From Octopus vulgaris (Eukaryota), in contig OX597824.1 in NCBI GenBank assembly GCA_951406725.2, positions 24,428,001-24,492,000 on the forward strand: 64,000 nt of DNA. The letters are read 5' to 3'. Made by a program: the position numbers and the translations under genes. The notes beneath the pieces were generated by a model. That model did no database searches and was not told the origin of the DNA. It worked only from the letters and a program-made list of their open reading frames with translations. Shown here in pieces: positions 1 through 48,718 of the stretch; position 1 is the first letter of the stretch, and each line of letters begins with the position of its first letter.

Positions 1-487
1 GTGTAGGTGTGTGGATGATGGTGTGGGGCTGGGAAGTGGTCAGTGCTATCGTGTGCGTGGTGGAGTGATGTGATGTGGTGTTGTGTGGTATGGTGTGGTG
101 GTGTATGGTGTGGTGGTATGTGGTGTGATGTGATGGTGTTGGGATGTGGGGGAGGCGAGAATGAGGAAAGCAAGGGTGGGGTGTGGGTTAGGCTGGGGTG
201 GGGTATGTAGGTTAGGCTAAGGGTGGAGGTAGAGGTGGGGTATGTGGGAGTGGGTTAAGGGATGGAGTCCGGTTGTCATGGTAACAAGCTGCTAATGCCA
301 CGCTGTCTGTTGATTGGCTAAAATTACCCAAATTTCCCCAATAATTCCAAATAACAGATTCTTTAATTTACAAGATAAAGTAATTAGTTGATCGTAATCA
401 AAATTCAGAGTTGCATCGAAGCACCAAAACTGAAAGCAATCTGTGCAAAATTAAAGGGGGTTCATTTTGTGAGTGAAATTTACTCGA

Positions 488-559
488 GGTCTTATGGTGT
501 AATGGTTAGCACTCTGGACTTTGAATCCAGCGATCTGAGTTCAAATCTCGGTGTGACCT
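488..559 (+). tRNA. tRNA-Gln(TTG), near-intact, possibly weakened
   Basis: 72-nt GGTCTTATGGTGTAATGGTTAGCACTCTGGACTTTGAATCCAGCGATCTGAGTTCAAATCTCGGTGTGACCT. It folds as a cloverleaf with A and B boxes and a TTG anticodon. The acceptor stem has one T-T mismatch and one G-T pair. Confidence 0.9.
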
Positions 560-571
560 AACAATATTACA

Positions 572-578
572 TTTTTTT
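572..578 (+). terminator. Pol III terminator (T7) downstream of tRNA-Gln
   Basis: TTTTTTT 12 nt after the tRNA 3' end. Confidence 0.6.
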
Positions 579-579
579 A

Positions 580-970
580 GGCGCATGAGTGGTAAGATGT
601 TTGCTTCCCAACCACATGGCTCCGGGTTCAGTCATACTGCGTGGCACCTTGGGCAAGTGTCTTCTGCTATAGGTTCGGGCCAAACAAAGCCTTGTGAGTG
701 GATTTGGTAGACGAAAACTGAAAGAAGCCCGTCGTATATATATATATGTATGCATACGTCTGTTGTTTGTGTCTGTGTTTGTCCCCCCAACATCGTTTAA
801 CAACCGATGCTGGTGTTTCTACGTCCCCGTCACTTAGCGGTTCGGCAAAAAGAGACCGATGTAATACATACTAGGCTTACAAAGAATAAGTCCTGGGGTC
901 GATTTTATTCGACTAAAGGTGGTGCTCCAGCATGACCGCAGTCAAATGACTGAAACAAGTAAAAGAGTAA
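580..970 (+). mobile_element. tRNA-derived SINE family A (probably the octopus OK-type SINE)
   Basis: tRNA-like head (GGTTCCGGGTTCAGTC), internal (TA)n/(TG)n, tail GGCGGTGCTCCAGCATGGCCGCAGTCAAATGACTGAAAC(AAGTAAAAGAGT)n. Other copies or fragments lie at about 1925-2095(-), 5367-5498(+), 7045-7100(-), 10561-10735(+), 12575-12990(+), 17455-17720(-), 41480-41918(-), 61600-62095(+) and 62140-62356(+). Confidence 0.9.
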
Positions 971-1083
971 CTAGATCCTTTTTCTTTTTCTTTCTTGCGA
1001 GAGAAGAATGAATATATAGTGCGTGTGTTTATTTGATCAAAAAGAAATGACCGTCCCAAAATACAATATATATGTATGTATGT

Positions 1084-5860: not shown

Positions 5861-5870
5861 TATATGTATA

Positions 5871-6016
5871 TCGAACTCTCTCATGCACCAAATGGCAGTT
5901 GTTAAAAAGCATTCGTGAGGTAAAATCATGTAGCAAACCAAATGGCGGTGCCCCAGTATGGCCACAGCTCATGAGCTGAAACTGGAAAAATCAAAAATCA
6001 AAATCATATCAAAATC
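5871..6016 (+). mobile_element. 5'-truncated 3' end of the CR1-like LINE
   Basis: Aligns with 48393-48532, including the CAGCTC-AT-GAGCTG hairpin and the (AAAATC)n tail. Confidence 0.85.
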
Positions 6017-22269: not shown

Positions 22270-22391
22270 GTTTTGTTTTGTTTTGTCTAGTTTCAGCTCA
22301 CGAGCTGTGGACATGCTGGGGCACCGCCATCTGCATGCGTTCCCATGCCGGGAATCGAACCCGGGCCGCCTGGGTGAAAGCCAGGAATCCT
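22270..22391 (-). pseudogene. 5'-truncated tRNA-Glu(TTC) fused to a CR1-like LINE 3' tail
   Basis: Minus strand: AGGATTCCTGGCTTTCACCCAGGCGGCCCGGGTTCGATTCCCGGCATGGGAA (22391-22340) + CGCATGCAGA + TGGCGGTGCCCCAGCATGTCCACAGCTCGTGAGCTGAAACTAGA(CAAAA)n. Confidence 0.85.
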
Positions 22392-47833: not shown

Positions 47834-47880
<47 letters not shown>

Positions 47881-48532
47881 TGGTCCTCTGGAAGACACTT
47901 GTCCTAAGCCACTTTGACTATTGCTCTCAGCTATGGTCACCATCCAGTGTCAAGTTGGTCACAGAACTTGAGGCGATCCAACGAAGCTACACGAAGAAGA
48001 TAGCCTCTGTGCAGCATATGAGCTACTGGGAGAGACTCAAGAGATTAAAGCTCTATTCCCTGGAGCGTAGACGAGAAAGATATGCCATAATATATATCTG
48101 GAAGATCCTGGAAGGTCTTGTCCCAGACTTTGGCATCGAGAGTCACACAAATGCCAGAACCGGACGCCACTGCGTAGTACCAAGGACTCCAAATTTGCCA
48201 TCAAGATGTAGGACAAGATATTGTGATAGCCTGGGCTTCAGAGGCCCACGGCTCTTCAATATCCTCCCGAAGAACCTGAGGGACCTGCATGGTGTAGATG
48301 CGGATGTCTTTAAAGTAGGACTGGATCTCTTCCTGTCAGGTGTCCCGGATGAACCAACTTCACGGCAGGAGGTGCAGATGAGGGCAGCTGCATCGAACTC
48401 TCTCATGCATCAGATGGCGTTTGCTAAAAAGCATCCGTGAGGTAAAACCGTGTAGCAACACCAAATGGCGGTGCCCCAGCATGGCCACAGTTCATAAGCT
48501 GAAACTGGAAAAATCAAAATCAAAATCAAATC
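47881..48532 (+). pseudogene. 5'-truncated CR1-like LINE: ORF2 C-terminus (open to stop at 48440) and 3' UTR
   Basis: WKTLVLSHFDYCSQLWSP...LEAIQRSYTKKI...SYWERLKRLKLYSLERRRERY..IYIWKIL.GL...RGPRLFNILP...FK..LD, then an (AAAATC)n tail. Confidence 0.9.
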
Positions 48533-48718
48533 ATATATATATATTTAAAAATTTTGCTTTTTAGTAGTTTTAAGCACTCCCCTTTCGTTTAAGAAAACTG
48601 TTGGCTGTTTTAGAAATGATCTTTCAGTCTGCTCAGCTACTATAGCAGTTTATGTGGGTTTTGTATGCATGTATGTACATGGACGCGTGTGTGTACATGT
48701 ATGTGCGTGTGTGTGTGT

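Follow-up and report, generated by a model that had tools for sequence, protein, structure and literature searches.

Identity of the chimera at positions 22270..22391

Does the 122-nt unit at positions 22270..22391 of the window, the 64,000-nt stretch of Octopus vulgaris DNA analysed here, belong to a minimal or nascent SINE family, as a preliminary description had suggested, or did it arise in another way? The unit combines 52 nt of tRNA-Glu(TTC), a head that reaches up to 72 nt in its look-alikes elsewhere, with the last 60 bases of a LINE (Table 1). The previously noticed tRNA match holds without a mismatch, and the matching gene is a genuine tRNA-Glu(TTC) gene of the same genome according to ARAGORN. 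The absence of CCA and the presence of (CAAAA)n after the LINE tail were confirmed as well, together with the likeness of the tail to both LINE ends of the window (39/45 nt at 48463 and 40/45 nt at 5940). The 10-nt linker that had been described exists, but it is not a plain linker: it is made of the 7-nt trailer of a tRNA gene and of three initial tail nucleotides, one of which is changed. An internal LINE deletion was considered as its source in view of a similar word at 48405-48420, and this candidate was dropped, since the linker is a gene trailer and varies by gene elsewhere.

The unit is indeed a 5'-truncated retrocopy of a tRNA/LINE-tail chimera. The source postulated for it, a tRNA gene with the tail immediately downstream, was not found: the best-matching gene has an ordinary T-run at that place and no tail. 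The window chimera is a single-copy retrocopy of a precursor tRNA-Glu joined to the double-hairpin tail of a LINE 3' end at a fixed site. Judging from its sequence, this copy would be silent, because it lacks the A box.

Table 1. Coordinates, strand and supporting evidence of the features found in the window.
Feature	Position	Strand	Evidence
Second chimera: whole tRNA-Gln(TTG) (487-560), trailer and T-run, SINE from its 5' start (~580) to a hairpin tail	487..975	+	ARAGORN, sequence
Shorter 3' fragment of the partner LINE family, tail from 5940	5870..6015	+	
Terminal (CAAAA)n repeats	22270..22288	-	Sequence
LINE-tail hairpin 2 and short conserved run after it	22289..22307	-	Folding; pair counts over 11 tails
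LINE tail start and hairpin 1; fixed junction at 22332/22333	22308..22332	-	
7-nt 3' trailer of the pre-tRNA, stopping short of the Pol III T-run	22333..22339	-	Identical to trailer of gene G000:C10:81970263
5'-truncated tRNA-Glu(TTC), nt 21-72, lacking A box and CCA	22340..22391	-	52/52 nt identical to gene L032:259-331
Partner LINE, 5'-truncated: ORF2 end to 48440, 3' UTR, tail from 48463	47880..48543	+	

The partner LINE and its tail

In the longer of the two LINE copies of the window, about 23 nt separate the ORF2 stop codon from the position of the fixed junction (48440-48463). The short LINE ORF piece of the window gave no Pfam match; longer copies of the family contain the Pfam domains RVT_1 and Exo_endo_phos (APE endonuclease), and the nearest named relatives of the LINE protein are from Argonauta. 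The family displays the features of CR1-type LINEs, namely an ORF2 with APE endonuclease and reverse transcriptase (RT), 3' stem-loops with tandem repeats, and no poly(A). Homologue searches gave no clade name, and the family is a putative CR1 member by the look of its C-terminal motif. A near full-length copy (L084:2634-4362, minus strand) has a CCCH-type zinc finger upstream of the endonuclease, with weak Pfam matches below the cut-off.

The tail is predicted to fold into two abutting hairpins. Across 11 hand-picked tails, 93% of the cells pair and, in hairpin 2, both partners have changed in 4 of the 5 pairs, figures that depend on a structure derived from the same sequences and on a lenient control. 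Rfam searches returned nothing meaningful and no ribozyme family at the LINE end, and nothing beyond a weak tRNA match around 22270..22391. Assembled RNA contigs from four runs, representing four organisms, have more depth over the tail at the LINE end; these contigs are mixed with SINE tails and blind to RNA ends.

A young tRNA-headed SINE of about 190 nt (L078:1970-2170 and sisters), with nearly identical copies and 604 exact tail matches, carries identical hairpins that begin at the same junction as in the chimeras, and its terminal repeat differs from that of the LINE. In L158, the body of this SINE is followed by a different tail that begins at the equivalent point, an arrangement suggestive of a tail swap; the body also occurs in a hybrid (L236).

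Independent origin of the chimeric copies

The searched genome comprises 2.8 Gb in 227 contigs. According to the preliminary description, many copies of the junction would indicate a SINE family and a single copy a one-off template switch. The window junction is unique in the genome at up to 2 mismatches; however, this either/or misses the actual case, which is that of many copies, each formed independently at the same LINE site. Among 542 candidates from a look-alike search, 36 of the 40 scored rows, located on 15 contigs, span both tRNA and tail, and their linkers all differ. A generic pattern extending from the T-loop to the tail has 60 exact matches genome-wide versus 0 for the reversed control, and thus the association is not due to chance.

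We identified at least 29 independent chimeras of pre-tRNA-Glu(TTC) with the LINE tail, which have 28 different junction strings in 29 copies and carry the trailers of different genes. No substitution is common to more than three of these 29 copies, and those sharing one have different trailers. Four tail subtypes mix freely: pairs with the same trailer have the same subtype 7 times and different subtypes 9 times, and no pair has both junction and subtype in common. A Glu(CTC) copy (L242) was removed from the 30 rows of the junction and subtype comparison, for which the expected value of 0.37 still includes it. Each Glu(TTC)/tail copy is of independent origin. The SINE definition in the portion of SINEBase consulted (PMC3531059) describes short, interspersed elements with, for instance, a tRNA-related head, and the window copy agrees with this description; the same source speaks of at least 100 copies of common origin and of shared diagnostic changes that are absent from the cellular gene, neither of which was found for the chimeras. 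A SINE in this sense is also transcribed by Pol III from its own promoter through the tail.

A run of four T precedes the tail in 13 of the 29 Glu(TTC) copies and would stop Pol III before the tail. Five others (L003, L006, L009, L013, and L014) keep both promoter boxes and have no such run; by sequence they are candidate SINE founders, and the sampled copies give no sign of their spread. The chimeras are chimeric retropseudogenes of the small-RNA/LINE type, as they consist of a cellular RNA in sense orientation directly 5' of a LINE end and derive from an RNA intermediate in independent events. The variable LINE junction that characterizes U6/L1 members of this type was not observed, since all 29 joins fall within 3 nt.

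Precursor RNAs as heads of the chimeras

A match of at least 7 nt to a gene trailer is present in 39 of 71 dispersed tRNA-Glu copies (shuffled mean 3.05, maximum 10 in 2000), using as a reference 63 fetched gene copies, which are an incomplete gene set. For the Glu copies on this LINE tail, the corresponding count is 19/29, the other 10/29 being without a 7-nt match among the 63 genes. Leader bases of the same gene are also kept in some whole copies (8 nt in L168 and 6 nt in L164), most having none. One copy (L043) matches the tRNA-Leu(CAA) gene L199 over its leader, intron and trailer, and the similarity ends there, whereas L066 is spliced yet retains its trailer, the gene-like tRNA rows carrying the intron. 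A CCA start was found in none of the 29 Glu(TTC) tail copies. Thus, gene-specific trailers, leaders and an intron identify the heads as precursor RNAs, and the spliced copy with a trailer, together with the fact that copying of gene flanks ends at leader and terminator, establishes an RNA intermediate.

The tRNA-Glu(TTC) genes form a cluster on C10, with single genes elsewhere. Clusters at G000:C10:81.83-81.97 Mb and C29:8.82-8.83 Mb contain more than 40 tRNA-Glu(TTC) genes and about 18 tRNA-Leu(CAA)-like copies.

Range of RNA partners and insertion sites

The 60 matches of the T-loop to tail pattern include 21 cases of Glu(TTC) recognized by eye, and ARAGORN assigned Ser, Asp, Leu, and Gly tRNAs among those fetched. 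Other pre-tRNAs on the same tail include one unspliced and one spliced, and both U6 and 5S RNA, the latter with its trailer, are joined to the same LINE tail at the same site. Hand-sorting of tRNA-Glu rows (100 listed of 115) gave 45 genes and 55 dispersed copies. Among the latter, 30 are hairpin-tail joins (19 to this LINE), 13 join SINE 5' starts, 11 join internal repeat positions, and 1 joins nothing. The U6 rows (100 listed of 247), also sorted by hand, comprise 17 genes, 24 hairpin-tail joins (9 to this LINE), 41 joins to SINE 5' starts, and 18 others. When the partner is another LINE (L184, L185, and L196), the join falls at variable positions inside the element.

The window contains a second chimera (487..975), whose tRNA-Gln(TTG), called a gene by ARAGORN, is likely a chimeric retrocopy; 70 SINE copies start aligning at window position 586. 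Several further arrangements were observed. At L189:250-520, a tandem pair of U6 copies stands before the end of another LINE, which may reflect a double jump. Two further hairpin-tail families (L159, L176, L181, and L182; L026, L037, L040, and L042) were seen only as tail-only partners. In partial tail dimers (L233, L234, and L235), a tail piece ending in hairpin 1 directly precedes a whole tail. The LINE tail also lies behind pieces or 3' ends of several SINEs (L228, L231, L232, and L237), which suggests single tail-swap events.

With respect to target-site duplications, non-simple repeats of at least 7 nt were found in 4 of 32 chimeras versus 3.2 in shuffled pairs, which is not above chance. 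Many of the copies sit in (TA)n, and such targets hide short duplications. A single duplication around both parts would be expected of a small-RNA/LINE chimeric retropseudogene; indirect evidence suggests that tRNA and tail were inserted in one event.

A fixed junction at the edge of the tail

On the LINE reference, all 29 Glu alignments begin at a distance of 74-76 nt from its end, immediately ahead of hairpin 1. Among 30 copies with other partners, none joins this LINE elsewhere. Solo tails begin at the same edge as the chimera joins. An anchor in hairpin 2 has 5888 matches in the genome, and the 100 listed, all on C1, were sorted by hand into 27 copies running into the LINE, 16 SINE copies, 34 solo tails, 5 joins to U6 or tRNA at the site, 17 copies ending inside hairpin 1, and 1 ending in the upstream 25 nt. 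Within these 100 of 5888, 39 of the 67 non-SINE copies reaching the site end there, compared with 1 of 28 in the next 25 nt.

As a matched control, we classified by hand LINE-type and SINE-type ends with an identical hairpin sequence. For SINE-type ends (100 listed of 604), 95 read through, 2 stop at the site and 3 stop inside hairpin 1, whereas LINE-type ends (100 listed of 250) include 16 that read through, 56 that stop at the site, 21 that stop inside, and 7 with a SINE body. The proportion stopping at the site is therefore 56/72 for LINE-type versus 2/97 for SINE-type ends (Fisher p ~2e-27, or 1e-24 if the 7 rows with a SINE body are counted as read-through). Cuts inside hairpin 1 are also commoner in LINE-type ends (21/93 vs 3/100). 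Since the SINE with identical hairpins is read through in 95/97 cases, the hairpins alone do not stop the enzyme. The edge of the tail behaves like a real RNA 5' end, capturing the same RNAs as SINE transcription starts do. The junction is fixed, its RNA partners are many, and the solo tails share its edge.

Proposed mechanism and alternative explanations

From these sequence comparisons, we consider it probable that RT copied a short tail-only RNA up to its 5' end and from there jumped to the 3' end of a pre-tRNA. LINE transcripts would yield a 3' remnant of ~60-75 nt with its 5' end 1-3 nt before hairpin 1. Either a site-specific cut would generate this remnant, or the Pol II transcript would be degraded in the 5'-to-3' direction as far as the protein-bound hairpins; such decay would spare triphosphate-ended SINE RNA. 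ORF2p would prime at a nick, often in (TA)n, and copy the tail remnant, after which the enzyme would either join the target, leaving a solo tail, or jump end-to-end to a nuclear Pol III precursor. In the window copy, reverse transcription would have stopped at tRNA nt 21. The rare copies that are whole and have no T-run would found SINEs. A wider proposal, for and against which we see about equal grounds, is that a discrete ~65-nt tail RNA is a free retrotransposition adapter: it would insert alone thousands of times, and the enzyme would jump from it onto any Pol III precursor, giving each the exact minimal recognition module. The genome would then continuously document attempts at SINE birth, as well as exchanges of tails, at one fixed junction, including the young SINE family that succeeded.

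The same junction could possibly, though in our opinion not very likely, reflect an RT stop on full-length LINE RNA just past the recognition hairpins, followed by a template switch and involving no short RNA. In several related tail families the edge follows the base of the hairpin, and the more frequent cuts of LINE-type ends inside the hairpin agree with such a stop; these ends may simply be truncation-prone. The same counts are compatible with an enzyme stop peculiar to the LINE context, as the LINE is unlike the SINE both upstream of the hairpin and in cis/trans binding. In addition, A/T microhomology with the (TA)n targets may contribute to the peak of solo tails. Both the read-through of SINE copies with identical hairpins and the rarity of truncation past the site argue against this explanation. 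Another scenario, which we regard as doubtful, is a cut of the tail at the fixed site leaving a 5'-OH, ligation by RtcB to U6, pre-tRNA or 5S RNA, and retrotransposition of the ligated RNA. Ligation predicts junctions with no extra base, as in 13/19 trailer-matched tRNA junctions; however, extra bases occur at 8/10 U6 junctions (some could be gene read-through), no ribozyme family matched the LINE end, and pre-tRNAs normally end in a 3'-OH. A jump is favoured over ligation by the joins to SINE 5' starts, which form the commonest U6 class (41/83 dispersed copies, 100 listed of 247) and 13/55 of dispersed tRNA-Glu (100 listed of 115), because SINE 5' ends are expected to carry a phosphate and RtcB needs a 5'-OH, according to the section consulted of the study that demonstrated such ligation for human U6/L1 (PMC6789731); the human joins described there have no site preference. 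The R2 enzyme jumps in vitro after adding mostly A, and such non-templated A would pair with U-ended RNAs; the same source argues, in the part available, that human chimeras arise by pre-ligation (PMC8857657).

The remaining explanations concern the copies themselves. A minimal tRNA-Glu SINE family descending from one or a few master genes, as initially suggested, is very improbable: many look-alikes span both parts and five have intact promoter boxes without a 4-T run, yet the unique window junction, the diversity of junctions, the lack of diagnostic substitutions, the mixed tail subtypes, and the like behaviour of other tRNAs, U6 and 5S largely refute this reading. Two separate insertions, with the LINE tail landing just behind a tRNA gene or pseudogene, can scarcely be entertained, even though no target-site duplication brackets the unit, since a retroelement lies directly behind the trailer in 54/55 dispersed tRNA-Glu copies (100 listed of 115, sorted by hand), gene flanks end at leader and terminator, and a spliced copy exists.

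Implications for the origin of SINEs

The union of a tRNA head with a LINE tail in SINE founding is attributed, in the portions consulted of two previous papers, to a rare template switch seen only in its end products (PMC4476161, PMC4824008). The intermediates described here are many and can be traced back to individual tRNA genes, and their common junction is also the body/tail border of living SINEs. A jump onto small RNAs, as we propose, would be the long-proposed first step of SINE birth. The existence of a tail-only RNA, the nature of the joiner (RT or ligase) and the ability of particular chimeras to start a family can now be tested. Such copies also inflate the counts of tRNA genes and SINE families, and ARAGORN calls several of them tRNA genes. 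The interest of the locus lies in the genome-wide fixed-junction system that one dead copy exposed.

Comparison with known systems

An Octopus repeat annotation reports many unclassified SINE families together with U and U-L1 classes, and the part of it considered here does not mention chimeras (PMC13282606), although its library may hold these elements. In the literature accessible without subscription, we found no report of fixed-junction pre-tRNA/LINE chimeras. The octopus SINEs OR1/OR2 are cited in the consulted sections of two studies of mollusc SINEs (PMC4824008, PMC4758252), whose BivaV-SINE2 and Vhc_1 likewise unite a tRNA head with a LINE stem-loop tail of CR1 type; however, as there described, these SINEs have bodies and amplify from masters, whereas the octopus chimeras have no body and show no amplification, a distinction drawn from descriptions and not from sequence. 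The same test, of a sum of independent chimeras against master copies, was applied by Kojima to SINEU, according to the part of that work considered (PMC4494074). As regards the proposed jump, the section read of the R2 study (PMC8857657) describes continuous cDNA over separate templates, aided by non-templated A, in vitro and with an enzyme of another clade than that of the octopus LINE.

Human tRNA/LINE-1 insertions resemble the octopus copies in that a tRNA was inserted together with a LINE 3' part, but the portion consulted of that report (PMC13174262) lists 21 loci, mostly with antisense tRNA halves attributed to twin priming, in contrast to sense precursors with trailer, leader or intron and 60 exact-pattern loci for one tail in octopus. 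Human U6/L1 chimeras formed by RtcB ligation share with them a U6 ending in a T-run, sense orientation, and a 5'-truncated LINE; the pages consulted (Moldovan et al., 2019, PMC6789731) describe variable junctions with no preferred sequence and duplications of 6-19 bp, whereas a single site predominates in octopus and partners are often SINE 5' starts. There is also a likeness to platypus and lizard chimeras of the U6/L2 and U6/Mon-1 types (Doucet et al., 2015, PMC4476161), in which, as far as the consulted part goes, a Pol III RNA, often 5'-truncated, stands in sense before a short segment either of a stringent LINE or of its SINE, with short or no duplications, and for which template switching was proposed, also as a route for SINE tail gain. 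That survey covered snRNA only, with 40 platypus copies, and the part consulted mentions neither a fixed LINE junction nor a peak of solo tails, nor any partner of the pre-tRNA or 5S kind. U6/LINE chimeras were already known; the fixed junction and whole pre-tRNAs in sense orientation were not found in the literature searched. The octopus chimeras work like platypus U6/L2 and, except for their fixed junction, belong with the small-RNA/LINE chimeric retrocopies.
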